64,000 nt of DNA from Candidatus Multivoradales bacterium (GCA_965248055.1 CBDFIJ010000004.1:1756299-1820298); one strand, 5' to 3'; numbered from the stretch's first letter, positions 1 to 13,220 are shown. Translations and numbers: made by a program. The notes: generated from the sequence alone by a model not told the origin.

Positions 1-1010
1 TCGCTGCGAGCGAGTCGTTCGTGGTCCGGATGCGGATGCCCGATAAACCGATCGTGGTCCACGACTTAGTGCGTGGCGATGTCGAGTTTCCTCCCGAGGC
101 GGTCGACGACTTCATCCTGTTGCGCTCCGATGGCACCCCGACCTACCACTTGTCGGTGGTCAGCGATGACATCGACATGGGCGTGACGTTGGTCATGCGC
201 GGCGAAGATCATCTCTCCAACACCCCCAAGCACATCGCCCTGTTTCAAGGTCTGGGAGCGGAGTTGCCGCAGTTTGGTCACCTACCTCTCATCTTGGGGC
301 CCAACAAAAAGCGCCTCTCCAAACGTACCGGTGCCACCTCGGTCGAGGAATTTCGCGATCAGGGCATCTTGCCCCAAGCGCTTTACAACCACCTGGCGCT
401 ACTCGGTTGGTCCCCCGGCGACGACCGCGAAGTGATGACCCAGGAAGAGATGGTCGCCGCCTTCACCGTCGAGCGCCTCAACGACTCGGCAGCCGTCTTT
501 GACTACGAAAAACTCGCCTGGATCAATGGCAGAACGATCTCTTCTCTCGAATATGCAGATCTGCTCCCGCACCTCCAACCATTCTTGGAAGCGGCCGGGC
601 TGGCTGATGTCGACCCAACCAGACTGCAAGCAGTGGTCGACCTACAACGCACCCGGGCCTCCACCTTGGTCGAACTCGCTGAGCGCTCCGTTCCCTACTT
701 TATCGACCAACTCGACTACAACCCGGAAGCCTGCGCCAAATTCTGGAACGACCCAGAACTGAAATCTGAACTCGAGCAACTGACCGAACGCCTCGCCGCC
801 TTGCACCCCTGGACCGAAGAATCCATCGAGGCCACCCTGCGCACCTGCGCCGACGAGCTCGAAGTCAAAGCCGGCCGCCTCATCCACCCCGTGCGCATGG
901 CCTTAACCGAAGCCAAAGCCGGCCCGTCATTGTTCGCGTTGGTGGAGGTTATGGGGAAAGACGCCAGTCTCAAACACCTGCGTAACTTCTTAGCCGGCTG
1001 CGTCGGCTAG
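1..1010 (+). CDS. gltX: Glutamyl-tRNA synthetase, C-terminal part; the 5' end lies before the window
   Basis: The continuous ORF ends at 1010. It carries the class-I 'KLSKR' (KMSKS-type) motif in '...PNKKRLSKRTGAT...' and the GluRS-like segment 'HLSNTPKHIALFQGLG', followed by an anticodon-binding-like C-terminus. Confidence 0.8.
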   Translation, partial: AASESFVVRMRMPDKPIVVHDLVRGDVEFPPEAVDDFILLRSDGTPTYHLSVVSDDIDMGVTLVMRGEDHLSNTPKHIALFQGLGAELPQFGHLPLILGPNKKRLSKRTGATSVEEFRDQGILPQALYNHLALLGWSPGDDREVMTQEEMVAAFTVERLNDSAAVFDYEKLAWINGRTISSLEYADLLPHLQPFLEAAGLADVDPTRLQAVVDLQRTRASTLVELAERSVPYFIDQLDYNPEACAKFWNDPELKSELEQLTERLAALHPWTEESIEATLRTCADELEVKAGRLIHPVRMALTEAKAGPSLFALVEVMGKDASLKHLRNFLAGCVG

Positions 1011-1297
1011 GAATCAAAGAAAGTAAGCTGCACCGCCAAGCCATCTCAAAATAAGCGGGATCACAAAACACCCTTCAACTGACGATAGAAGTGGTCGTTT
1101 CGTTTGTGAAAGAGTTCCCTAAGCTCAGAAAGTTCCTCGGGAGTGTGCAACAGACCCCATAATTCCCAAGAGTCAGCAATGACTGTTGTAGAAAGCCTCG
1201 GTACTACTTTGTGCCTAAGATCCCACTCATCCAACCGACGCTCCGCATCTACCGCAACCCGCGTGGCTATGAATAATAGCGAGCTACAACGAATGAG

Positions 1298-1372
1298 TCG
1301 GCCGGAGGCAGGGATTAATGCACTAATTCGACAGGTCAGAGCTGTGTGTTCTACCACTGAATGACCTTCCAA
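1298..1372 (-). pseudogene. Degenerate tRNA-Gln-like remnant, about 78% identical to the tRNA-Gln at 5363..5437
   Basis: Direct alignment to the intact tRNA. The D-arm and the anticodon arm are retained, with the same CTCTGAC loop and compensatory stem changes. The T-arm (GTTCGAATC becomes an ATTAATCC-like sequence) and the acceptor stem no longer pair. Confidence 0.6.
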
Positions 1373-1828
1373 GCGCCGCGCGGACGAACCCGGACCGCGA
1401 ATACTCAGCAGCAACAAGAAAAGTGCCAAATGACCCGTTCCTCCCTCCGCACCTCAACCGTGTGGGTTCCAAGACTTCTAGCTCTAGCCCATATGTGCCC
1501 TTAGAACCTTCGTTGATTTGGCGCACATACGGATCGGCACTTCACCTTCTAGGGCGGGAGGTCAGCGCTGGCGCACAAGTTCGTCTATTCTTCTGGGGCC
1601 ACCAATCTTAACTTCTTGTGTTTCTTTCCAACATATGGATCGACCAACTCTGGGCATGCAACCGGGGGAGCACCCGCCCCATCAGGCCTCCGCCTAATGG
1701 GGCCTCTCAGGGGTACTGGACAAATACAACCTCTTGGCAGTACACCTTTCGTCGTGATGTTGTGATAAGATTTTTGACTACTAGGAAAACTAGTCGCCCA
1801 GGGGGCGCCGACCAAAAGGAGGGGTTTT

Positions 1829-2605
1829 ATGCGACTTTGTCTGGCCGGGCTGTTAACCATCGTGTTGATTGTGATGGTGCCGCACTTGGGCGCTTCCGCT
1901 CAAGAGGTTCCAATGGAGATTGATGCTCCTGCGGCCTCCGCGCAACGCTTGGGGGTCGTAGGCTACACGGGGTATCAACGCGATGGCACCAACTTTGTTA
2001 TCGAAGTTGAGACTAAGGCTGGCTTCTTTGACGTTGTGCTTTCGTATCTTGAAAACGGATCGACCGCTGTAAAAATAACCGATGGCCGAGACGTGTTAAT
2101 AATCGAATTCAACGGCCCGGAAGGTACCTTCTCGGTTGAGCATATCGGTTCGATGCGAGCCTATAAAAAGACCCTCGACAAGACAAGTAAGAAGTGGCGA
2201 GAACACCCTGGAAGCGACAAGGGCCTACTTCGTCGATTTGATAAGCTAATCAAGGTTGGTGCTGAAACGGCGGCTGCTGTTCAGAACAGCCTGCTCGTCG
2301 ACTTAGATGAGCGCTCGACCGCCGACAAAGAGAGTCGCGGCGTGAATACCACTTCGTCATTGTCGCAGGGCGGATGCTACATTCCATGCAACGGTCCATG
2401 GGTGCGGGGTAGCGCGTCCATTTATTGGACCCGCTCTGCGTGTTGTGCTTCAGCTTTACAAGATGCCCACAATCAATGTTGGACGCAGTACTGTATCGGC
2501 TGCTGCGAGTTGCGCTCATGTGATGCAGCCTGCGGCTTTGATGACTACTTTTGTGCGACCTGTGGGGTCTCCGGTAGAAATTGTGGATTGTTGTGTTGCA
2601 CCTAG
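1829..2605 (+). CDS. Secreted protein with a C-terminal domain very rich in cysteine
   Basis: Signal-peptide-like N-terminus (MRLCLAGLLTIVLIVMVPHLGASA) and an RBS 'aaggagg' 7 nt upstream. The last roughly 80 residues contain about 16 Cys, including CC, CxxC and CxxCC clusters. Confidence 0.65.
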   Translation: MRLCLAGLLTIVLIVMVPHLGASAQEVPMEIDAPAASAQRLGVVGYTGYQRDGTNFVIEVETKAGFFDVVLSYLENGSTAVKITDGRDVLIIEFNGPEGTFSVEHIGSMRAYKKTLDKTSKKWREHPGSDKGLLRRFDKLIKVGAETAAAVQNSLLVDLDERSTADKESRGVNTTSSLSQGGCYIPCNGPWVRGSASIYWTRSACCASALQDAHNQCWTQYCIGCCELRSCDAACGFDDYFCATCGVSGRNCGLLCCT

Positions 2606-2827
2606 TCAGGTGAATTTCGTTTTTCGCGGATTGTTGTGTTAGCTGCTGATATTGGTTTTACCGAAGTTGTCCTCGTGGTCTCGCTTGCGGTAGCGAAGCT
2701 GGGCTTATTTGCGGCCGTAGCGCTGTGGGTGGTCAGGGTGTTGAGAAAGAGAGGTTCGAGCCGAGAAAACCCTTGAGGCAAAGCGGTTTTTGCTGGGGTT
2801 CCTTCATTTGGCGCCGCTTGGGCCACC

Positions 2828-3196
2828 CTATATTTTTATTTTTCGGCGCCGATTTTCTTCGCGGCGCTTCTGTCTCTCCGGTGTATCTTCAAGCCGTTTT
2901 TCAAGGTGGTCGGCTAGTTCGCCGAAGACGTCATCAACTTTCTCAAATGGTATTTTTTTGATGAGAAGCTGCTTGCGAACCGCAGGGGGCGACAGGACCC
3001 AGGTGATTACTTGTTGGTCGTTCATGTTGGTCAAGCGAGTCAGGTCTTCACCCGAAAGGCCTTCGACCGCTTTTTCGTAGGCACCCTTAAACTCAGGGTC
3101 TTCAAGTTTCTCCAGAAGCTGTTTTGCTCCTTCGCGATTCTTTACTAGTTCGGCTGTTGTCGCTCCTGCTTCCTTCCATCCTCTACCTTGACTCAT
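2828..3196 (-). CDS. Hypothetical charged helical protein
   Basis: Clean 122-aa ORF with plausible coding composition. I did not recognise it. Confidence 0.45.
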   Translation of the reverse strand: MSQGRGWKEAGATTAELVKNREGAKQLLEKLEDPEFKGAYEKAVEGLSGEDLTRLTNMNDQQVITWVLSPPAVRKQLLIKKIPFEKVDDVFGELADHLEKRLEDTPERQKRREENRRRKIKI

Positions 3197-3296
3197 TTTT
3201 CACTACCTCTTCTTCCTGGGTTTCCCTGGGCCTAGGAGCTTGCTGAAAAACCCCACCACCGGACCATAACGATTCTATAATTGGGAATAGGAGATT

Positions 3297-4367
3297 TTGA
3301 TGCGTGGATCGGATCAAGGTCAGGGATCAATGTTCAGCTACGTTGACCTGGAACGGCGAATTCCTCGGTCTCATCCGTTGCGGCGGATCCGAAGTTTGAT
3401 GGACGAAGCTCTTGTAGAGCTATCGGAGCGTTTTGAGACGGTCTACGCTTCGAGTGGTCGTCCTTCGATTCCCCCCGAGCGTCTGCTCCGAGCATTGCTG
3501 CTTCAAGTGCTCTTCAGCGTGCGTAGTGAACGCCAGCTGATGGAGCAACTTGAGTACAACCTTCTATTTCGCTGGTTTGTCGGTCTTGGTATCGACGAGC
3601 GGGTGTGGGACGCGACGACGTTTTGCAAGAACCGAGAGCGCTTGCTCGAAGGTTCGATCGCGGAAGAACTGTTTGCAGCGGTGCTGTCTCAAGCCGAGGA
3701 CCGTGATCTGCTGTCACCGGATCACTTCAGCGTTGATGGCACACTGATCGAGGCTTGGGCTTCGCACAAGAGCTTTCGGCCAAAGGACGAAGAGGTTAAA
3801 CCTCTGGACGGTGGAGCGGACTTCCGAGGCCAGAAGCGGTTGAACCAAACGCACGCTTCGACGACCGACCCCGAGTCTCGGCTGTCGCGAAAAGGCCGTG
3901 GTAAGGAAGCAAAACTAAGCTACCGGGGCAACATTCTGGTCGAGAACCGGCACGGGATGATTGTCAACACCGAGGTCAACATCGTCACCGGCAACGGTGA
4001 GACAACAGCGGCTCTGGCCATGCTGGAGCAGCGGGCTAGCAATCATCGCGTCACGGTGGGTGCTGACAAGGGCTATGACAACCGAGCGTTTGTAGAGAAT
4101 GCGAGGAAGCTGAATGCGACACCTCACGTAGCGCAAAGCACCAAGAATCGCCGCAGCCGGATTGACCGACGCACCACTCGCCACGCAGGTTACGAGATCA
4201 GCTTGGCGAGACGACCCAGAGTCGAGGCACCCTTCGGCTGGCTCAAACAGTACGGACTGCAACGCAGACCGATGTTTCGAGGCGTAGCCCGCATCGGTTG
4301 GTCTTTCACTTTTGCGGCAACAGCGTTTAACTTGCTCCGAATAGCCAATCTGAGCGCGCCAACATGA
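3297..4367 (+). CDS. IS5/IS1182-type DDE transposase
   Basis: N-terminal 'LLRALLLQVLFSVRSERQLMEQLEYNLLFRWFVGL' and the typical IS5-family DDE organisation. I could not define terminal inverted repeats. Confidence 0.75.
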   Translation: MMRGSDQGQGSMFSYVDLERRIPRSHPLRRIRSLMDEALVELSERFETVYASSGRPSIPPERLLRALLLQVLFSVRSERQLMEQLEYNLLFRWFVGLGIDERVWDATTFCKNRERLLEGSIAEELFAAVLSQAEDRDLLSPDHFSVDGTLIEAWASHKSFRPKDEEVKPLDGGADFRGQKRLNQTHASTTDPESRLSRKGRGKEAKLSYRGNILVENRHGMIVNTEVNIVTGNGETTAALAMLEQRASNHRVTVGADKGYDNRAFVENARKLNATPHVAQSTKNRRSRIDRRTTRHAGYEISLARRPRVEAPFGWLKQYGLQRRPMFRGVARIGWSFTFAATAFNLLRIANLSAPT

Positions 4368-4648
4368 CGAATTTCTATCCCAAGTGCTCCTCAAATCGCT
4401 CGAATCACCCGGTAGGGCGAATCGAAGAGCTGACCCAAGGGGTCACCAACACCCTCAACTCGCCAGCCACCTTGATTCGTCTCCACATTCAAAGTACTTC
4501 GACCGTTATGACCACTGAAATTAGCTCCGTTGCCCTTTTTTCAGCAGGCTGCTAGGGCACCGCAGCTCGACCTCGGGCCTGGTTCATCCCGCTGTTACTG
4601 TACCCCTCAGCCCTCCACCACGACAACCTGGGGCGGTAGAATCTAGTA

Positions 4649-4888
4649 ATGACCAAGGCTGAACTGAGCAAGGCGGCGATGAACCTCTCCCCTGCCGAGC
4701 GGTTTGAACTGGCACAGAGACTTTGGGAAAGCCTAGAGCCAAACAAAGAAGACGGTGCGATTCCATTCTATGAATGGCAGCGAGAAGCGATCGATCTGGC
4801 GCTTACCAACTACGAGGCCAACCCCGACTCTGCCGTTCCCGCTGAAGAAGCCGAAGCCGAGATTCGAACTCGACTCGGCCTCGAATGA
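4649..4888 (+). CDS. Type II antitoxin of the 'putative addiction module component' family
   Basis: 'MNLSPAERFELAQRLWESL' signature. Its stop overlaps the start of the downstream toxin ORF (ATGA). Confidence 0.7.
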   Translation: MTKAELSKAAMNLSPAERFELAQRLWESLEPNKEDGAIPFYEWQREAIDLALTNYEANPDSAVPAEEAEAEIRTRLGLE

Positions 4889-5184
4889 ATTCACTCTTTG
4901 CCCAAGAAGCACTCGACGATATCGAACGCGCGGCAACCTATTATCTTGAGAGCGCCAGCAAGGCCGTCGCCTCTGCTTTCTTTCGTGGCCTAACCGAAGC
5001 GCGATCGTTTGTGGAGGACCATCCACTCGGCGCTCCTCTGCTCTTTCTCCAAGTTCGCCGCAAGCGGCTCACCAAGTTTCCTTTTCTGCTGTTCTACGTC
5101 GCTGAACCGGACCGCGTGGTCATCCTGCGAGTTCTCCACTCCGCCCAAGATCCTGCACGCTGGCCGATCACGGATCGAAAATGA
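4885..5184 (+). CDS. RelE/ParE-family toxin
   Basis: 99 aa and translationally coupled to the antitoxin, with a ParE/RelE-like C-terminus 'VVILRVLHSAQD'. Confidence 0.65.
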   Translation: MNSLFAQEALDDIERAATYYLESASKAVASAFFRGLTEARSFVEDHPLGAPLLFLQVRRKRLTKFPFLLFYVAEPDRVVILRVLHSAQDPARWPITDRK

Positions 5185-5288
5185 GTCGTCGCAAAAACTA
5201 CTAAATCGATTACCCGATCTGGGATTGAGTTACACGAGCTGCTAGTTGAGCTCCCTAAAGACTTTTGAGAATCAGGGATTCGCTCCAA

Positions 5289-5307
5289 GCCGGTCCGCCG
5301 CTGGCGG
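5289..5307 (-). terminator. GC-rich hairpin (8-bp stem GGTCCGCC/GGCGGACC) downstream of tRNA-Gln, with no U-tract
   Basis: A perfect inverted repeat is visible in the sequence. Calling it a terminator is tentative. Confidence 0.25.
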
Positions 5308-5362
5308 ACCGAGCACGACCGAACCCTGGCTACCAGCAACGACTGAGCTGAAAGCGAAGGAA

Positions 5363-5437
5363 TGGCTGGGAGGCAGGGATTCGAACCCCGATTCTACGGG
5401 TCAGAGCCGTATGTCCTACCATTGAACGACCTCCCAA
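5363..5437 (-). tRNA. tRNA-Gln, anticodon CTG
   Basis: The reverse complement folds as a cloverleaf: acceptor UGGGAGG/CCUCCCA plus G and CCA, D-arm AGUGGUAG-like, anticodon stem UACGG/CCGUA with loop CUCUGAC, and T-loop GGTTCGAATCC. It matches bacterial tRNA-Gln, which starts UGGGG and ends CCCCAGCCA. Confidence 0.9.
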
Positions 5438-5446
5438 CACCGGTTG

Positions 5447-5482
5447 GTGAAGCTAGCAGATGGGGAGAAAGAGGGTCAATTA
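5447..5482 (-). promoter_or_regulatory. Putative sigma70-type promoter for tRNA-Gln: TTGACC, then 18 nt, then TAGCTT, with an upstream A/T tract
   Basis: Read on the minus strand just 5' of the mature tRNA end. This is by eye only. Confidence 0.3.
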
Positions 5483-5812
5483 AAAAATGTTGACTCAGCT
5501 CGTCGAGCACTTCAATGGCTTTGATTCACTCGGGCAGTTCTCGTTCCCTTTGGTTAATACTTCTTACCCCCCAGCAAAAATTCGTTCCTACCGTCACAAC
5601 TGGGTGTACGTCAGATTTGTGAGATGAGCGTTGGGTGTGGCGATTGCTAGGCGGATTTGCGCGCTGGCGATGAGGGGTTCCAGAAGCGGTCGAACGCCAG
5701 CTCAATGCCGATCTCTCGGATCACTTGGGTGCGACGACGCCCTGCGGCGGTGGAAAGTCGGCTCGTTATGCGGGACGTCGCTCCAAACACTTCCAGACCG
5801 CCTCGGGGCCAA

Positions 5813-6226
5813 TCAGCTCGTCGACTTCTGCTGTGACCTCGGTCTCGAGGATCGTCTGGAGCCCTTTTTTTTCTCCGCGTTTGTGCTTTCAAACTCGGGG
5901 TCGGTCAGCTCTGCATCGGCCAATTGCTCACAAGCCTGCCAATAAGCCTCCAGGTGCTGGCGAAACTTTCGACCTACGGCGATCTGTTGGCTTACTCTTT
6001 CGGCCTGTTGCGCCGTCAGACGCCGCGATTGTGTCCGGCCCCCCACCGCGCGAGTGAGGCTGAAGTAGGGACCGTGGCGGGCTTCTTCACTGCTGGCGCA
6101 CTTACAGTTTGACTTGCCACACTTGAGAAAGCGCTCTCCGAGCGAGCCTCGTCGCATCGGCTTGGGGTGGCTGAAGCTCTCGACCACCTTTCGGACTGTT
6201 TCGGGGATCATTTTGGGTTTCGCCAT
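5813..6226 (-). CDS. Small basic zinc-ribbon protein (Cys-x4-Cys and 'HGPYFSLTR' motif), function unknown
   Basis: The start at MAKPK has an RBS 'aggagg' 7 nt upstream. The motif is 'CGKSNCKC...HGPYF'. Confidence 0.55.
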   Translation of the reverse strand: MAKPKMIPETVRKVVESFSHPKPMRRGSLGERFLKCGKSNCKCASSEEARHGPYFSLTRAVGGRTQSRRLTAQQAERVSQQIAVGRKFRQHLEAYWQACEQLADAELTDPEFESTNAEKKKGSRRSSRPRSQQKSTS

Positions 6227-6496
6227 GGCGTCCTCCTGTCGGCTATAATAGCCGACAGATAGATCCCCATGCAACCCAAGTCGCTTGAACATTCTCAGCT
6301 TCTCACACTGATGTCGTACACCCGTCACAACTTTGCGCCTTCACGAGATAGCTTTTTTCAAGTACGCTTTATCTCTGCATTCGTTGACTGAGCGGTGTCA
6401 ACCTAGGTTGTCGCTAATGTAGGGGCAACCTCCGATACGAATGATCCCGTAGCGAAAATATCGCTGCTTAGACCGTTCTAAAAGGAACTCTCCATC

Positions 6497-7213
6497 GTGC
6501 CCAAAGACACTCCTAACCCAAAAGCCAGTCAGGCTGTCACCGCTCTCGACTCCCGTTGTGACAGCGATGATAGTCGTTCTAATTGTTCGGCACCAACAGG
6601 TTCTCTCCATAGAGAAACACGTTGCTTAACTTGTTGCACACTTATTGAGCCCGGAGCAACAAAGTGCATCCACTGCAACAGCTACCAAAACTACAAAAGA
6701 TACTTTTCAATTGGGCTACCCTTCTTGTCGCTTCTGGTTGCTCTAGCTTCAGTTTTCACCGTTATGATTTCCGAAGTTAGCAAGCTTCCGAGGTCTGAAG
6801 TTCAGATTCGGGTAGTCAAAGTGGAAGTTCGAGACTTTCCCGAGAACTCTCGAAGCACATACGTCCGCCTTTGGATGCAGAACCGCGGAAATCGGCCAGC
6901 AACTGTTCGCAGTATTCACGTTGCTTGGAAGAGCGCTGAGCAGAAAAATAACACCCTGCGCAATCCTGACTACTTCAACGTAGAGACTGCTACCCATCCA
7001 TATCCAGATGGTGGCCGCGCTATTCCGATTGTGCTCTTGTCCGGTGTGACGGGCGTCTTTGAGGTAGTCTGGGAAAGTCATGAAGAGATAATAGAAACCA
7101 CCCCTTGTAGAGTCAGACTTCAAGTACTCAACTGGCGTGGTCAAGCGGAAAAGATGGAACTAGATTGCTGGTCTTGGGGTCACGATGTGGATTCCGATGT
7201 CTGGTCAAGCTAG
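6497..7213 (+). CDS. Low-GC hypothetical protein: a cytoplasmic Zn-ribbon (CLTCC...CIHC), one transmembrane helix and an extracytoplasmic domain
   Basis: GTG start. The composition is well below the window average. The domain order was read directly from the translation. Confidence 0.5.
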   Translation: MPKDTPNPKASQAVTALDSRCDSDDSRSNCSAPTGSLHRETRCLTCCTLIEPGATKCIHCNSYQNYKRYFSIGLPFLSLLVALASVFTVMISEVSKLPRSEVQIRVVKVEVRDFPENSRSTYVRLWMQNRGNRPATVRSIHVAWKSAEQKNNTLRNPDYFNVETATHPYPDGGRAIPIVLLSGVTGVFEVVWESHEEIIETTPCRVRLQVLNWRGQAEKMELDCWSWGHDVDSDVWSS

Positions 7214-7405
7214 AGTGAAATCGTCCTGTGTTCGCAGTTAGGCCACTGTTGTGGAGGCAGAGCCCGGGGCGAAGCTCCAAGATTTTGGGCGTTTGTTTTC
7301 TTGACCCCATCAGGCGGTGGAAAAACCAAGGAAGGAGGCCCTATCTGCCAACGTAGCTGAGACACTTGGCCCCCTGATAATTAGAGGGCGGAAGGAGGTT
7401 TCAGT

Positions 7406-7885
7406 ATGTTTCAGAATCAGCCCATATTGCCCGTCTCGCCGAAGGCGACCGAGGAGCGTAGCGACGAGGGATCCGGAGGGGAGACGGCGCAGTTGTCCTC
7501 GACCCCCGAATCGGTACCCGACCCTGAGATCGAGGCTCGACCCGCCAGACGGCGGTTTACGGCAAAGTACAAGCTGGCGATCTTGGAGCAGGCCGACGCT
7601 TGCTCCAGCCGAGAGGAGGTCGGGTCCCTGTTGCGCCGGGAGGGTCTCTACTCATCTCATCTATCTAACTGGCGCCTAGCTCGGCGACGGGGATCGCTTG
7701 CCGCGCTAGGCAAGAGGCGCGGACGCAAACCCAAAAGGCACCCGTTGGAAAGCAAGGTTGCTCGACTAGAGCGGGAGAAGACTCGGCTTGAGAACGAATT
7801 GCACAGGGCACAGCTGATCATCGATGTGCAAAGAAAAGTAGCCGGGCTGCTGGGTATCCCCTCAGAGGGCGAGAAGAACTCGTGA
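7406..7885 (+). CDS. IS3-family transposase OrfA, with a helix-turn-helix and a leucine zipper
   Basis: 'RRFTAKYKLAILEQAD...' is a typical IS3 OrfA. Its stop overlaps the orfB start. Confidence 0.75.
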   Translation: MFQNQPILPVSPKATEERSDEGSGGETAQLSSTPESVPDPEIEARPARRRFTAKYKLAILEQADACSSREEVGSLLRREGLYSSHLSNWRLARRRGSLAALGKRRGRKPKRHPLESKVARLEREKTRLENELHRAQLIIDVQRKVAGLLGIPSEGEKNS

Positions 7886-8895
7886 AAGCGGCCAGGACGC
7901 TGGCTCCGTGGGTCGGTATCGCACCGGCCTGCCGGAGCCTGAGCGTCAGTCGTGCAACGTTCTATCGTCGGCTTCGGCCGAGATCAACCGAGCCTCAGCA
8001 GCCTCGACCGACTCCAGCTCGGGCACTGACAGTCAGCGAAAAACAACAGGTCCTTGACCTACTCAACGGGCCGCGCTTTGTCGACGCTGCACCGGCGGCC
8101 GTGGTGGCCACCCTTCTCGACGAAGAACGCTATCTGTGCTCGGAGCGCACCATGTACCGACTCCTGGCAGCTGAGAAGACGTTGCAGGAGAGACGGCGCC
8201 AACGCCGCCATCCGGTCTATACCAAGCCAGAGCTACTCGCCACAGCGGCAAACCAAGTCTGGAGCTGGGATATCACCCGGCTGCGAGGTCCGCAGCCGGG
8301 ATGGTGGTTCTATCTCTACGTTGTCCTCGATATCTTCAGCCGCTATGTGGTCGGCTGGATGCTCGCCGAGCACGAACGCGAGGCCTTAGCCCAAAGGCTT
8401 CTCAAGGAGACCTCAACCAAGCAAGGCATTCCCAAGAATCAGCTAACCCTACACAGTGATCGGGGCTCGCCGATGACCGCCAAGGACACCGGACGACTCC
8501 TCGTACGGCTTGGTATCTCTCAGTCGTTCTCGCGGCCTCGCATCTCCAACGATAATCCCTTCTCCGAAGCCCAATTCAAGACCCTCAAGTATCACCCGAG
8601 CTTTCCCGATCGGTTCGGCTCGATCGAGGACGCTATCGCCTTTTGCAGGTCGTTCATTATCTGGTACAACACCCAGCACCGTCACGCCGGCATCGCCATG
8701 CTGACACCCGAAGATGTCCACTACGGCAAGGCCGACCACAAGCTCAAGATCCGTCAACTAGCCCTCGATGAAGCCTGGCGAAACAACCCGCAGCGCTTTG
8801 TCCGAGGAAGACCGACCATTCAGCTACTACCCAGAGCCGTATGGATCAATCCACCCGAACGTCAACATGCCAAGGAGGTCGTCCCGATACACTAA
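7882..8895 (+). CDS. IS3-family transposase OrfB, with a DDE integrase core
   Basis: 'WSWDITRLRG...YLYVVLDIFSRYVVGW...HSDRGSPMTA...YNTQHRHAGI' is an rve-type catalytic core. Confidence 0.85.
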   Translation: MKAARTLAPWVGIAPACRSLSVSRATFYRRLRPRSTEPQQPRPTPARALTVSEKQQVLDLLNGPRFVDAAPAAVVATLLDEERYLCSERTMYRLLAAEKTLQERRRQRRHPVYTKPELLATAANQVWSWDITRLRGPQPGWWFYLYVVLDIFSRYVVGWMLAEHEREALAQRLLKETSTKQGIPKNQLTLHSDRGSPMTAKDTGRLLVRLGISQSFSRPRISNDNPFSEAQFKTLKYHPSFPDRFGSIEDAIAFCRSFIIWYNTQHRHAGIAMLTPEDVHYGKADHKLKIRQLALDEAWRNNPQRFVRGRPTIQLLPRAVWINPPERQHAKEVVPIH

Positions 8896-9120
8896 TTAAT
8901 TCTGCCAACTGTCTCAAAGTTGTTGACAGGTTCCGAGGAGCCAAGAGGCAATCTAGAATCAAACCGCCAGGGAAACGCTTCCAGCGTTAATACTGTGTTT
9001 GTACACGCAGCCGAAAAAGAATTTGGCGTTGGACGAATTGCTATCGGCGCAAAGGTTCAGACACTGAATGGCCGCTGGAATGAGTGCTTTGATAATTTCT
9101 CAGCGTCCGTCAGGTAAGCA

Positions 9121-9990
9121 CTAACTCGGATGCCACCCTTGCCAGATTTCTAGATAAACAACAATGCTACTTTGCGCTATATCTTCTTCAAATCGCCATT
9201 CGCGTTGATAAAGCATCCCGACATCAAAGTATCCTGCTACAAACTTGCTACGATAAAACTTTAATCCCAAGCCCAAGACGGCCCGATTGTTCCAAGAGAA
9301 TCCCTCTGAGTCGACACTACTGTAGACCTTTCCGACGGCTCGAAATGAGCCGGCTTCGGTTACCTTCAAGGTAATTGCCTGCTGGACATCCAATCCCACC
9401 GTAGCGTTACCTGGTTCTGTTGGATATTGATTGCCTCCACCAATCCAGAAACTTCCTGAGGTCCGCCCTGGAATGTCAGCCTCATCTCTTGCTTCAGCAC
9501 CCCAACGCTTCCAGGCTTCAAAGAAAAAAAGAAGTTGGTCTTCCTGTATTCCGTTTTGGAATCGGTGCTCGGACACATATCCAACTCCAGTCTCCAAATA
9601 ATGGTTGGCGCGAGATCTCCGTAATTCGAAACCAGTTTTGAGAATAGCTCGATTGTTCCAATCAAAATTCTGTCGGTCCCCACTAACACTCAGTGACGCA
9701 AACGGCTCGAAGCACAGCTTGCCGAGACTCCACCGTGGCCATCTCTTCTTAATCAACGCACTGCCGATGACATTGTTTTCCTCGGTTGGAAAAGGGTTGC
9801 CCACTCGACTCCATAGCGTTAGCGCATATCCTTCACCGCATGCATTTTTTTCTGTCGCAGCAAATACATTTACAGGAAAGAATAGGCACACAGAAATTAC
9901 TATGACTAGAACCAAACCGAACGACCAGGGAACAGCAGTTCTTCTCGGTCTGTGCTCTTCGTGAAAGAGAGTATTGAGAGCTTTCTTCAT
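9121..9990 (-). CDS. Low-GC secreted protein, probably a beta-rich outer-membrane protein; function unknown
   Basis: N-terminal hydrophobic segment followed by alternating amphipathic beta-strand-like runs. It has no canonical C-terminal Phe. Confidence 0.45.
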   Translation of the reverse strand: MKKALNTLFHEEHRPRRTAVPWSFGLVLVIVISVCLFFPVNVFAATEKNACGEGYALTLWSRVGNPFPTEENNVIGSALIKKRWPRWSLGKLCFEPFASLSVSGDRQNFDWNNRAILKTGFELRRSRANHYLETGVGYVSEHRFQNGIQEDQLLFFFEAWKRWGAEARDEADIPGRTSGSFWIGGGNQYPTEPGNATVGLDVQQAITLKVTEAGSFRAVGKVYSSVDSEGFSWNNRAVLGLGLKFYRSKFVAGYFDVGMLYQREWRFEEDIAQSSIVVYLEIWQGWHPS

Positions 9991-10034
9991 AGCAAATCAC
10001 CGCCAATGCCGCTGCTCCTGGAGCTCGATGCAAA

Positions 10035-10064
10035 CTATTCAATATCTTAATGACTATTGAATAG
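10035..10064. promoter_or_regulatory. Perfect 10-bp inverted repeat CTATTCAATA, 10-nt spacer, TATTGAATAG, in the divergent intergenic region
   Basis: Read directly from the sequence. It is AT-rich in a GC-rich background and lies between divergently oriented genes. Confidence 0.35.
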
Positions 10065-10143
10065 TAGCACAAAGGGACCTCCTGAAGCGGGCCATCGAAA
10101 CCCATAAGGACGATGTATCCTTGAGAACTTCGCGCTTAGCAGG

Positions 10144-11128: not shown

Positions 11129-12145
11129 ATGAGACTCGCACCTCTTTGCACCGTTATCGTTCTTGCCCTCGCCGCTTGCGGCGATGGTCGAACCCCTTTG
11201 TTGGTCTATTCGCCGCACGGCAAGGAGATTCTGCTTCCGGTGGAGCAGCGATTTGAACAACTGCACCCCGATATCGACCTGCGTTGGTTGGATATGGGAT
11301 CGCAAGAAGTTCTGGATCGCATCCGCTCGGAGCGCGCCAACCCACAAGCTGATGTTTGGTACGGCGGACCACACACAATCTTCGAGCAGGGGATCGAGAT
11401 CGATTTATTGGCGCCTTATCGACCAGCATGGGCAGATCAGTTGCCCGCAGGAACGGCACAGGCCGATGATCTCTATTTCGCCATCTACCGTGCGACACCG
11501 GTCCTGGTCTACAACCAAGACCTAGTGACCGAGGAAGAGGCCCCGGCAACCTGGGATGACCTGCTCGACCCCAAGTGGAATCAGAAAGTGGTTCTGCGCG
11601 AGCCCCCAGCGAGTGGCACCATGCGCACATTGTTCGGCATGGTGCTTTCTGACTCGGTGCGCAATACCGGTGACGAAAAACAGGGCTTTGAGTGGCTGCT
11701 CGCTTTGGACCGTCAAACCAAGGAGTACGTGCCCAACCCAACCCTGCTGTTTGAGAAATTGGCGCGCGGTGAAGGACTCGTGTCGATGTGGGAGATCACC
11801 GATATCTTGGCGTTAGCCAAGAAAGGCTCGCCGCTCGCCTACAAGCTTTCCGCCAGCGGTACTCCGTTCATCTTGGATGCGGTCGGCATCGTCAATGGCG
11901 CCCCCCACCCCGAGGCGGCAAAGCGTTTTCTGGATTGGGTGGGTACCGACGAAGCTCTGTTGCTGGTGCTGGATAATGGCTACCGTTTGCCTGCCCGCAG
12001 CGACCTCGACAGCGACGACCTGCCGGACTGGGCGCGAGAAGCGTTGACCGCGGCAACCCCTGCCGAGATCGATTGGGATCTGGTCACCGAGCGCGGTAAC
12101 CAGTGGATGGTGCACTGGGATCGTGAGATCCGTGGTCGCGGATAG
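11129..12145 (+). CDS. ABC transporter periplasmic substrate-binding protein, Fe(III)/FbpA-like
   Basis: Lipoprotein-type signal (LALAACG). It has a family-1 solute-binding fold and is followed by the ATPase and the fused permease. Confidence 0.65.
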   Translation: MRLAPLCTVIVLALAACGDGRTPLLVYSPHGKEILLPVEQRFEQLHPDIDLRWLDMGSQEVLDRIRSERANPQADVWYGGPHTIFEQGIEIDLLAPYRPAWADQLPAGTAQADDLYFAIYRATPVLVYNQDLVTEEEAPATWDDLLDPKWNQKVVLREPPASGTMRTLFGMVLSDSVRNTGDEKQGFEWLLALDRQTKEYVPNPTLLFEKLARGEGLVSMWEITDILALAKKGSPLAYKLSASGTPFILDAVGIVNGAPHPEAAKRFLDWVGTDEALLLVLDNGYRLPARSDLDSDDLPDWAREALTAATPAEIDWDLVTERGNQWMVHWDREIRGRG

Positions 12146-12161
12146 TTCGTAAGGATCCAGC

Positions 12162-13220
12162 GTGGCCTATCTATCGATACAAAACGTATCCAAGCACTTC
12201 GACCAACCGGTCTTGCAAGATGTTTCTCTGGAGATCGAAAAAGGGGAAGTCGTTGCTCTCTTAGGACCCAGCGGCAGCGGTAAGACCACGTTATTGAGAA
12301 TTGTCGCTGGCTTTGAGACCCCGGACCAGGGCTCGATCATCGTCGATAACCAGGACATCACCGCCCAGACTCCAGCCAGTCGTCGCTGTGGCATGGTGTT
12401 TCAGCACTACGCGCTGTTCCCGCATCTAAGCGTCGGCGAGAACGTCGCTTTTGGTTTGGCCGGCAGATCCCGCTCAGAAGTCGACACCCGGGTCGAAGAG
12501 ATGCTTCAGGTGGTCGGACTGGATGGCCTTGCGGCGCGTGGGGTCGACCAGATCTCGGGAGGTCAACAGCAGAGAGTGGCGCTAGCTCGTGCCTTGGCGC
12601 CCTCGCCGCGAGTGCTACTACTGGATGAGCCGCTCTCCAACTTGGACCCTGAGCTGCGCGAACGAACCCGTAGACAACTGCGCGAGATCGTACGCGCCAC
12701 CGGAATCACCACCCTGATCGTGACCCACGAACAGGAGGAGGCATTCCATATTGCCGATCGCACAGCGGTGCTCGGCACCGGTCGATTGCGGCAGATCGGT
12801 CGCGCCGAAGAGCTTTACTACCAGCCTGCTGACCGCTTTGTCGCCCGATTCGTTGGCCGTGGATCGGAAGTGCCTGCTACGCCGGACAAAAACTCACCGA
12901 GTGGTTGGGCTCTGGGCTGGCAGCCATCGGTGATGCCGACCACGGTGCGCATCCTCGATGCACAGACACCAAACCGAGCCTGGATTCGACCTGAGTCTTT
13001 GGCGATAGGTCCGATAGGCGCAAAGGGCTGGGGAGGCATGGTGGTTGAGATCCGTTGGCACCCCAGGTCTACGGTAGTCACCGTCGAGTTGAGCACGGGC
13101 GCTGAAATAGAAGCGGCCGCTGAATCTCGCTTGGCCGAAAGCTTGTCGCTGGGCGACAAAGTCAGCGTCAATTGGCGGGCACAAGGCCCCGAGGCGCTGC
13201 TGTTCGAGGTCGATTCTTGA
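12162..13220 (+). CDS. ABC transporter ATP-binding protein with a C-terminal TOBE domain (FbpC/PotA-like)
   Basis: Walker A 'GPSGSGKTT', signature 'LSGGQQQRVALARAL' and Walker B 'LLLDEP', plus a regulatory C-terminal domain of about 120 aa. Confidence 0.9.
   Translation: MAYLSIQNVSKHFDQPVLQDVSLEIEKGEVVALLGPSGSGKTTLLRIVAGFETPDQGSIIVDNQDITAQTPASRRCGMVFQHYALFPHLSVGENVAFGLAGRSRSEVDTRVEEMLQVVGLDGLAARGVDQISGGQQQRVALARALAPSPRVLLLDEPLSNLDPELRERTRRQLREIVRATGITTLIVTHEQEEAFHIADRTAVLGTGRLRQIGRAEELYYQPADRFVARFVGRGSEVPATPDKNSPSGWALGWQPSVMPTTVRILDAQTPNRAWIRPESLAIGPIGAKGWGGMVVEIRWHPRSTVVTVELSTGAEIEAAAESRLAESLSLGDKVSVNWRAQGPEALLFEVDS

Follow-up and report, generated by a model that had tools for sequence, protein, structure and literature searches.

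In the 64,000-nt stretch of DNA analysed here (the window), an intact tRNA-Gln(CUG) gene and a decayed copy of it are separated by a segment of about 3.9 kb, or 2.6 kb without the insertion sequence that it carries. Beyond the decayed copy, convergent with both tRNA genes, lies the 3' part of gltX, and on the opposite side of the intact gene there is a second stretch of lineage-specific DNA (Table 1). The closest record to this DNA is labelled Candidatus Multivoradales, class Thermoanaerobaculia. The nearest relatives are referred to here as L001 and L034; the glutamyl-tRNA synthetase (GluRS) encoded in the window, with the Pfam domains tRNA-synt_1c (E 1.9e-44) and Anticodon_2 (E 2.2e-31), is 84% identical to that of L001 and 79% identical to that of L034.

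Table 1. Features of the gltX to tRNA-Gln region, in window coordinates
Feature	Position	Strand	Basis
gltX, 3' part (glutamyl-tRNA synthetase)	21..1010	+	Pfam
DUF7674 gene relic, 5'-truncated, C-terminal ~46-56 residues left	1061..1243	-	phmmer, BLASTP
Pseudo-tRNA-Gln, full-length decayed copy of tRNA-Gln(CUG) gene	1298..1371	-	Repeat search, nhmmer
258-aa orphan protein, signal-peptide-like N-terminus, Cys-rich C-terminus	1829..2605	+	ORF
122-aa orphan hypothetical protein	2828..3196	-	ORF
IS5-family element (3236-4551) with its target duplication	3232..4555	+	Inverted repeats, Pfam
Antitoxin, Unstab_antitox family	4649..4888	+	Pfam PF09720, E 2.9e-12
ParE-family toxin	4885..5184	+	Pfam PF05016, E 3.2e-9; PHROG 2455, E 3e-6
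tRNA-Gln 3' flank, long terminator-like hairpin	5275..5362	-	BLASTN, folding
Functional tRNA-Gln(CUG)	5363..5436	-	ARAGORN; Rfam RF00005, 59.3 bits, E 2e-11
Conserved tRNA-Gln upstream region, promoter-like box TTGACC...TAGCTT	5437..5481	-	Alignments with L001, L034
Second lineage-specific insert, 4.7 kb	5490..10143	.	Synteny breaks, Pfam

The intact tRNA-Gln gene and its flanks

ARAGORN calls a single tRNA over the 64 kb, the intact tRNA-Gln(ctg), and all 21 of its 21 stem pairs are present by hand count. The gene sits in a conserved block, with window positions 5275-5481 being 83.7% identical to L001 and positions 5273-5481 being 78.8% identical to L034 (BLASTN). The 88 nt downstream of the tRNA are orthologous in both relatives, and variable DNA begins only beyond the hairpin found there. 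This flank folds with z -4.5, -3.0 and -2.6 in the three genomes, and the inner-stem sequences differ among them. Downstream of the gene, the tRNA 3' end recurs in short inverted copies. These were first read as att scars, a reading that was dropped because the tRNA-Ser(GCT) of the relatives shows the same feature; they belong to a hairpin that generally follows tRNA genes and are not recombination scars.

On the other side of the gene, the conserved TTGACC...TAGCTT box would, judging from its sequence, be the promoter of tRNA-Gln. When 5' flanks are compared, the intact gene matches L001 with z 12.2 and the decayed copy with z 0.0, and both this comparison and alignment show the promoter-like region to be missing upstream of the decayed copy. 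Past this region, where the relatives have about 0.3 kb followed by an EamA gene, the window carries the second insert: a DUF6788 gene inside 23-nt inverted repeats, a 238-aa ORF, an IS3-family element (orfA/orfB, 7406-8895) and a 289-aa ORF. It is unrelated to the segment between the tRNA copies. A candidate third tRNA remnant near 8812-9073 was rejected, as its repeat and nhmmer matches are weak (E 4-7) and show no tRNA layout.

A decayed full-length copy

Aligned ungapped, the two copies are identical at 55 of 74 positions and at 53 of 68 (78%) over positions 1-68, in agreement with the earlier note, which had described a same-orientation copy of about 78% identity. A repeat search pairs 1290-1372 with 5355-5437 (83 nt, 75% identity). 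An nhmmer profile built from five intact tRNA-Gln genes finds the decayed copy at E 5.1e-10 (37 bits) as the sole extra match across the window and seven related loci, and at E 2.4e-12 once flanks are included in the profile. Such values (5e-10 and 2.4e-12) make a chance resemblance next to inconceivable, and the same holds for an assembly artefact, as 19 differences in 74 positions do not fit a collapsed or duplicated assembly repeat.

ARAGORN does not call the decayed copy, and Rfam finds no tRNA in the latter at E<=10, even when just 131 nt are searched. The anticodon loop CUCUGAC is intact and G18G19 is kept, while the T-loop has been destroyed (UUCGAAU to CAUUAAU). It had been claimed that the T-arm and acceptor pairing were lost; this is true of the T-loop, but the T-stem keeps 4/5 and the acceptor stem 5/7 of its pairs, with 16 of 21 stem pairs kept and 5 broken overall (hand count from the sequences). 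Likewise, the compensatory changes attributed to the anticodon arm come down to a single one, G29:C39 to A:U, as the double change of U26:A42 to C:C breaks the pair. The 19 substitutions comprise 12 transitions and 7 transversions, with G-to-A and C-to-T together making up 8 of the 19, a pattern that looks neutral.

The features kept, together with the compensatory pair, are what one would expect if the second copy were an unusual but working tRNA-like RNA, or a regulatory element. This is very improbable for a sequence that neither Rfam nor ARAGORN recognises, that folds no better than its shuffles on either strand (z +0.73 and +0.74), that lacks the conserved promoter, that is absent from all relatives and whose substitutions appear neutral. 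More improbable still is that the copy was recruited to act as antisense sensor or sponge in the 3' UTR of the gltX mRNA, linking synthetase expression to tRNA-Gln. A simple scan found no terminator on the gltX (+) strand from 1010 to 1298, so a read-through gltX mRNA would carry a stretch 74-78% complementary to tRNA-Gln, with exact blocks of 13 and 9 nt; tRNA-Gln would be a substrate of the window's GluRS if this enzyme is non-discriminating, as we assume. No positive evidence speaks for such a role, and the absence of the copy from all relatives and its neutral-looking decay argue against it.

Five sites vary among the five intact orthologues, four of them falling in the 5' part of the decayed copy and the fifth further 3', and at all five it has the state of the window's own tRNA. 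It thus arose within the lineage. The longest exact block shared by the copies is 13 nt (AATCCCTGCCTCC, T-stem and acceptor 3' strand), a run to be expected at 78% identity (by our own estimate, 0.78^13 is ~0.04 per start, with ~0.5 such runs expected over the gene). Firm homology reaches ~15 nt beyond the 5' end of the tRNA and 8 nt beyond its 3' end, and stops so close to the borders that the promoter was never copied. The 3' flank of the decayed copy shows no folding (z -0.06).

The segment between the copies

The cargo that the earlier note had listed, namely an IS5-type transposase, a toxin-antitoxin pair, a hypothetical gene and a Cys-rich protein of secreted type, is confirmed by Pfam and the ORFs. 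The 258-aa orphan follows a Shine-Dalgarno sequence, AAAGGAGGGG, and 15 of its 16 Cys lie within the last 76 residues. Neither it nor the 122-aa orphan has a Pfam or PHROG match, and each retrieves only itself in a protein cluster search (5.8e9 clusters for the former). The assignment of the mobile element to the IS5 family is based on its DDE transposase (ORF 3297-4367; DUF772, E 3e-27; DDE_Tnp_1, E 1.5e-9), its terminal inverted repeats (GAGCTTGCTGAAAAA at 3236-3250 and TTTTTCAGCAGGCTG at 4537-4551; 20 nt and 90% complementary by repeat search) and a 4-bp duplication at a CTAG-type site (CTAG at 3232-3235 and 4552-4555). There is one copy of it in the window. As its own target duplication is intact, the element arrived later than the DNA around it. 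The antitoxin stop and toxin start overlap by 4 nt, and the pair at 4649-5184 has the layout of a predicted type II toxin-antitoxin module of the ParE/RelE superfamily. Both this module and the IS5-family element are ordinary members of their kinds.

The G+C content of the segment is 0.50-0.54, against 0.59-0.60 in gltX and in the conserved genes from ~10.2 kb onwards. The segment is a mosaic and not one element. The absence of an integrase, noted previously, holds up in a wider search: Pfam and PHROG detect no integrase, excisionase or relic of either in the ORFs or unassigned frames of 1011-5362, and nine ORFs from 1011-1923 and one from 2602-2826 give no integrase relic at Pfam E<=1. In 5437-10143 there is no Phage_integrase match either, and DDE transposases are the only finds. 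A viral origin was considered and rejected: the PHROG matches have no phage functions, the 5' half of the decayed tRNA has no match at all, and for the tRNA 3' end the sole match is a phage with 18 tRNAs in an array, which has no bearing here.

The gltX side and the related genomes

The segment had been thought to begin directly after the gltX stop codon. This is not so, as the decayed copy lies 287 nt past the stop (1010) and the DUF7674 relic lies between. The relic was recognised by a phmmer match (E 7e-5; 1.84e9 representatives) to P0126, a 139-aa protein that is itself DUF7674 (E 1.4e-17), and in pairwise BLASTP it is 54% identical to residues 87-131 of this protein over 46 aa (E 1e-12). 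Two further phmmer matches, P0124 and P0125, are repetitive proteins that look, from their sequence, like translated repeat DNA and were disregarded. A mechanical ORF (1061-1429) runs from the relic through the decayed tRNA only because stop codons are absent there, and automatic annotation may in this way fuse the pseudo-tRNA and the truncated gene into a false 122-aa ORF.

L001 and L034 each have one tRNA-Gln, and both lack the cargo and the second tRNA copy. Different, unrelated genes fill the slot, encoding a 217-aa PG-binding protein and a 523-aa MopE-like protein, and a clean empty site was seen in neither. Two functional tRNA genes with the same intervening genes, the arrangement that would have spoken against an inserted or decaying copy, were found in neither relative. 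Metagenome scans with GluRS peptide patterns and with a DNA pattern of the tRNA-Gln promoter plus gene yielded no closer relative, nor did exact look-ups of the window's proteins, and no GluRS in the protein database exceeds 84% identity. What lies between gltX and tRNA-Gln is different in each related genome, and the interval is a hot spot of recombination. Apart from annotation, the locus is of minor importance; it flags a gene-turnover hot spot beside the tRNA-Gln of an uncultured and little-known acidobacterial lineage.

Origin of the segment

The window has two tRNA-Gln copies, one of them dead, around mosaic, lineage-specific content that an insertion sequence joined later. The reading that we prefer, with a probability of roughly 0.45, is that an insertion by recombination at tRNA-Gln duplicated its target and that the promoterless copy then decayed. 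After the lineage split from its closest sequenced relative, a circular molecule with a tRNA-Gln-like sequence would have recombined within or at tRNA-Gln in a Campbell-type event, site-specific or homologous, leaving two direct copies. The copy joined to the conserved promoter and the EamA side (5363-5436) would have stayed functional, while the distal one (1298-1371) would have drifted neutrally, losing its T-loop and five stem pairs. The recombinase gene, if there was one, would have been lost later. The IS5-family element would then have landed between the genes for the 122-aa protein and the antitoxin, and a deletion would have truncated the DUF7674 gene beside the dead copy. We infer both the former presence of a recombinase and the unity of insertion and duplication as one event.

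Several observations argue for a tRNA-targeted insertion: the island-like geometry of an intact tRNA, a segment on its 3' side and a direct cognate copy; the high significance and uniqueness of that copy; relatives that have a single tRNA-Gln and fill the slot with unrelated genes; the lower G+C of the segment; a cargo of two orphans, a toxin-antitoxin pair and an insertion sequence; and homology confined to the tRNA borders with the promoter left uncopied. The lack of homology in the DNA that follows each copy (1011-1197 shows no similarity to 5001-5262) also argues for it and led us to reject a tandem duplication of a larger block. Against it stand the absence of any integrase, excisionase or relic, an exact block no longer than the overall identity predicts, and the lack of an empty-site allele among the relatives. 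The earlier note had offered an old tRNA-targeted integration or a decaying duplicate. The lineage-specific copy and the single tRNA-Gln of the relatives agree with either. The full length of the copy, the lineage's own states at four variable sites in its 5' part, and the orthologous 88-nt flank, which leaves the near boundary of the variable DNA outside the tRNA, argue against a classical integrase-built island and also weigh against the insertion that we prefer.

Some of the same evidence can be turned towards a local duplication of tRNA-Gln with little or no flank, by unequal crossing-over or slippage, after which the promoterless copy decayed and independent insertions came between. This history is possible and, with the fill-in, nearly as likely as insertion at tRNA-Gln. 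It would account for the agreement at 5/5 variable sites and for the missing integrase; the three tandem 105-133-nt units that adjoin the tRNA-Gln of L001 show that such events occur at this locus, the insertion sequence came separately with its CTAG duplication intact, and the 4.7 kb on the tRNA's other side indicates that insertions are taken up here even when recombination is not directed by the tRNA. It would, however, make a coincidence of two unit ends that both fall within ~15 nt of the tRNA ends if breakpoints were random, it requires every later insertion to land exactly between the copies, and homologous DNA does not follow them.

A third history, an unlikely one, is the additive import of an allele, in which DNA from a close relative entered by a crossover in gltX and an illegitimate join, stacking a donor DUF7674 gene and tRNA-Gln beside the resident segment. 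On its gltX side the dead copy is indeed physically linked to the truncated relic of DUF7674, its tRNA states are those of the sub-clade, and its 3' flank has weak, colinear similarity to the flanks of L001 and the resident gene (global z 3.4 and 3.1; scores reached by 3/2000 and 6/2000 shuffles). Yet this similarity is weak and lies partly over the DUF7674 coding relic, as does the marginal one to the hairpin flank (local z 1.9-4.2); the donor order gltX - DUF7674 - tRNA-Gln occurs in no relative seen, and an extra deletion is required.

Comparison with known systems

Islander islands lie in tRNA genes and are bounded by the regenerated tDNA and a displaced fragment; the segment extends from the 3' side of an intact tRNA to a cognate copy that has the same orientation (PMC4383910). 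The window has the same intact tRNA at one end and a direct cognate copy at the far end on the 3' side, and its segment is likewise lineage-specific, lower in G+C and made up of accessory or selfish genes. It differs from them in lacking a tyrosine integrase, in its small size, and in having a complete copy diverged by 22-26% in place of a 3' fragment with an exact core. Moreover, its DNA starts past the orthologous hairpin flank and not inside the tRNA. A tRNA-bounded segment is thus not necessarily a classical integrase island.

The decayed copy resembles tRNA pseudogenes that arise by duplication, being full length, promoterless and neutral-looking in its decay, with the same anticodon and same-lineage states. 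Unlike these, the two copies here lie at a distance of 4 kb, unrelated DNA separates them, and the duplicated unit stops at the tRNA borders. The variable content of gltX ... tRNA-Gln ... EamA among relatives, and the presence of inserts on both sides of the tRNA, are also features of core-gene integration hot spots as generally known, from which this locus differs in that one edge is marked by a dead tRNA copy. The segment is an ordinary recombination scar and no new kind of element, and both leading histories involve known kinds of event.

A full-length, decayed copy of tRNA-Gln

ARAGORN called a single tRNA in the 64-kb window, a tRNA-Gln(ctg) that scores 59.3 bits against the Rfam tRNA model. 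A second, full-length copy lies on the same strand near gltX. The two are identical at 55 of 74 positions without gaps and at 53 of 68 (78%) across positions 1-68, and a repeat search pairs 1290-1372 with 5355-5437 (83 nt, 75%). A profile built from five intact tRNA-Gln genes of the window and its relatives recovered this copy at E 5.1e-10, and no further tRNA-Gln copies were found with it in the window and seven related loci. With flanks included, the profile gave E 2.4e-12 and an alignment spanning 1387-1290. That the resemblance is chance or artefact is hardly conceivable, and the intact gene with a directly oriented copy, as described in the earlier note, is confirmed with small corrections.

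The copy is nonfunctional as a tRNA. It drew no ARAGORN call and no Rfam match at E<=10, even with a search space of 131 nt, and shuffled sequences fold just as well. Counted from the sequences, the copy keeps 16 of 21 cloverleaf pairs (acceptor 5/7, D 3/4, anticodon 4/5, T 4/5) and the intact gene all 21; the earlier statement that T-arm and acceptor pairing had been lost is thus incorrect. The T-loop is altered (CAUUAAU for UUCGAAU), and the anticodon loop (CUCUGAC) is identical in both. The 19 differences include 12 transitions, eight of them G-to-A or C-to-T, and this spectrum looks like neutral decay. The changes in the anticodon arm had been read as compensatory, which is true of one pair, but one double change broke its pair; together this is about what chance would produce. 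It is very unlikely that the copy is a functional tRNA-like RNA.

Features of the window and of related loci
Feature	Locus	Position	Strand	Remarks
gltX	window	ends 1010	plus	convergent with tRNA genes
DUF7674 gene relic	window	1061 to about 1243	minus	5'-truncated; by protein similarity
tRNA-Gln, decayed copy	window	1298-1371	minus	
258-aa protein	window	1829-2605		signal-peptide-like N-terminus; 15 Cys within last 76 residues
122-aa protein	window	2828-3196	minus	
IS5-family element	window	3236-4551		15-nt terminal inverted repeats; CTAG target duplication flanking both ends
Unstab_antitox/ParE pair	window	4649-5184		genes overlap by 4 nt
tRNA-Gln hairpin flank	window	5275-5362		
tRNA-Gln(CUG), intact	window	5363-5436	minus	
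DUF6788 gene	window	5813-6328	minus	bracketed by 23-nt inverted repeats 5602-5624 / 6301-6323
IS3-family element	window	7406-8895		within 5490-10143 insert
238-aa ORF and 289-aa ORF	window			within 5490-10143 insert; 289-aa ORF without family
tRNA-Gln hairpin flank	L001	12114-12196		
tRNA-Gln hairpin flank	L034	13269-13358		
tRNA-Ser(GCT) flank with complement	L001	about 6926-7052		
tRNA-Ser(GCT) flank with complement	L034	7315-7332		
tRNA-Ser(GCT) flank with complement	L035	77-94		
tRNA-Gln(CUG)	L036	11491-11564	gltX strand	42 nt past gltX; GluRS 70%
tRNA-Gln(CUG)	L039	6047-6120	gltX strand	48 nt past gltX; GluRS 67%

The segment between gltX and the intact gene

The claim that the segment starts directly at the gltX stop is refuted by the DUF7674 relic, which lies between gltX and the decayed copy. 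The minus-strand ORF 1061-1429 matches a DUF7674 protein of 139 aa, C-terminal part against C-terminus, at 54% identity across 46 residues. As mechanically called, the ORF is a false fusion of this gene fragment with translated pseudo-tRNA; public collections list it (122 aa) among their predicted proteins (P0123, 100% self-match). The truncated relic places a rearrangement junction directly beside the dead tRNA. The one unusual reading, by which a read-through gltX mRNA would contain sequence antisense to tRNA-Gln in its 3' part, is extremely improbable.

Beyond the decayed copy, the 258-aa and 122-aa (2828-3196) proteins have no Pfam or PHROG match and matched only themselves among 5.8 billion protein clusters. 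The stretch 1000-3400 has a G+C of 0.50-0.54; gltX and the conserved genes that lie beyond about 10.2 kb have 0.59-0.60. The IS5-family element, single-copy within the window, came in separately and recently. As had been noted earlier, no integrase remains: scans of the ORFs and of the unassigned frames turned up neither a gene nor a relic.

The slot in related genomes

In the close relatives L001 and L034 (GluRS identity 84% and 79%), gltX is followed by one minus-strand gene, tRNA-Gln (minus), EamA and an ABC transporter. Each carries one tRNA-Gln, so that two functional genes enclosing the same cargo are not seen. In the slot L001 has a PG-binding protein of 217 aa and L034 a MopE-like protein of 523 aa; the two are unrelated, and neither resembles the window cargo. 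The arrangement in which gltX directly precedes tRNA-Gln is found in L036 and L039 but not in L001 and L034. In these more distant Thermoanaerobaculia the two genes may be co-transcribed, and in L036 toxin-antitoxin and other accessory genes come after tRNA-Gln. In the window's clade tRNA-Gln is inverted and apart from gltX, and the difference in orientation points to an inversion in the ancestor of that clade.

A 4.7-kb insert (5490-10143) lies 5' of the intact tRNA-Gln where L001 and L034 have about 0.3 kb; its DUF6788 unit resembles a small mobile element. Together with the differing slot genes, this second insert marks the whole interval as a hot spot of gene turnover. In L001 (11031-11130, minus), the last 30 residues of the PG-binding ORF share 47% identity with the N-terminus of the window antitoxin. 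By this similarity the stretch, which adjoins gltX, may represent a piece of an antitoxin gene that became fused, and if so would hint at a former toxin-antitoxin module in that lineage's slot.

In this clade, the complement of a tRNA gene's own T-stem and acceptor 3' strand comes next downstream, for tRNA-Gln as for tRNA-Ser(GCT). The tRNA-Gln complement sits in a long hairpin whose structure is conserved across three genomes while the inner stems differ; this could be a terminator or a processing signal able to pair with the tRNA 3' end. Directly downstream of tRNA-Gln in L001 are three tandem units of 105-133 nt (11829-12196). On inspection, each has a GGAGG..CCTCC hairpin and one hairpin leads into a T-run, so that the units resemble a terminator that has been multiplied.

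Origin of the duplication

The five intact orthologues of tRNA-Gln differ among themselves at five positions, and at each of these the decayed copy has the window's state; it agrees with L001 at three, with L034 at three, with L036 at one and with L039 at none. As judged by these sites it therefore came from the gene of its own lineage or of a very close relative, and most likely arose once L001 had branched off, though convergent G-to-A and C-to-T changes could conceivably have produced the matching states. It is unlikely that an allele from a relative was imported additively, with gltX as the anchor. The copies are firmly homologous over the tRNA itself and, outside it, over about 15 nt on the upstream side and 8 nt on the downstream side, but no further. 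The upstream box TTGACC...TAGCTT, common to the window, L001 and L034, is missing upstream of the decayed copy, which was probably without a promoter from the outset. The 88 nt 3' of the intact tRNA have orthologous counterparts in L001 and L034 and fold as the long hairpin, with a different inner-stem sequence in each of the three genomes, and variable DNA begins only past them. The corresponding flank of the decayed copy has marginal colinear similarity, does not fold and soon meets the DUF7674 relic.

We tentatively prefer, at a probability of roughly 45%, a Campbell-type insertion. DNA would have inserted at tRNA-Gln by site-specific or homologous recombination, duplicating the target; the promoter-linked copy would have kept its function and the other decayed, after which the recombinase would have been lost, the IS inserted and DUF7674 truncated by deletion. 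The geometry fits the Islander principle (PMC4383910), the cargo is low in G+C, lineage-specific and orphan, the duplication borders lie near the tRNA ends, and the DNA after the two copies is without homology. Against this stand the missing integrase, a copy that is full-length with an unconvincing exact core, same-lineage states in the portion expected from a foreign attP, and the orthologous hairpin flank adjoining the intact tRNA. Those same-lineage states also speak for a local duplication of tRNA-Gln, after which DNA was inserted independently between the copies, a possible though less probable history, as do the tandem duplications adjoining tRNA-Gln in L001 and the evidently permissive site. 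Both histories fit and the data do not separate them; the earlier note's choice between tRNA-targeted integration and a decaying duplicate is to that extent partly supported.

Comparison with known tRNA-bounded elements

Two defining features of an integrase-built tDNA island are missing here, the integrase and an island start inside the tRNA, and the locus is therefore not assigned to that family. The parts that can be identified (IS5-family IS, ParE/antitoxin, pseudo-tRNA) are ordinary. The locus is a further instance of a known feature type, and it looks and works like a degraded tRNA-bounded islet.
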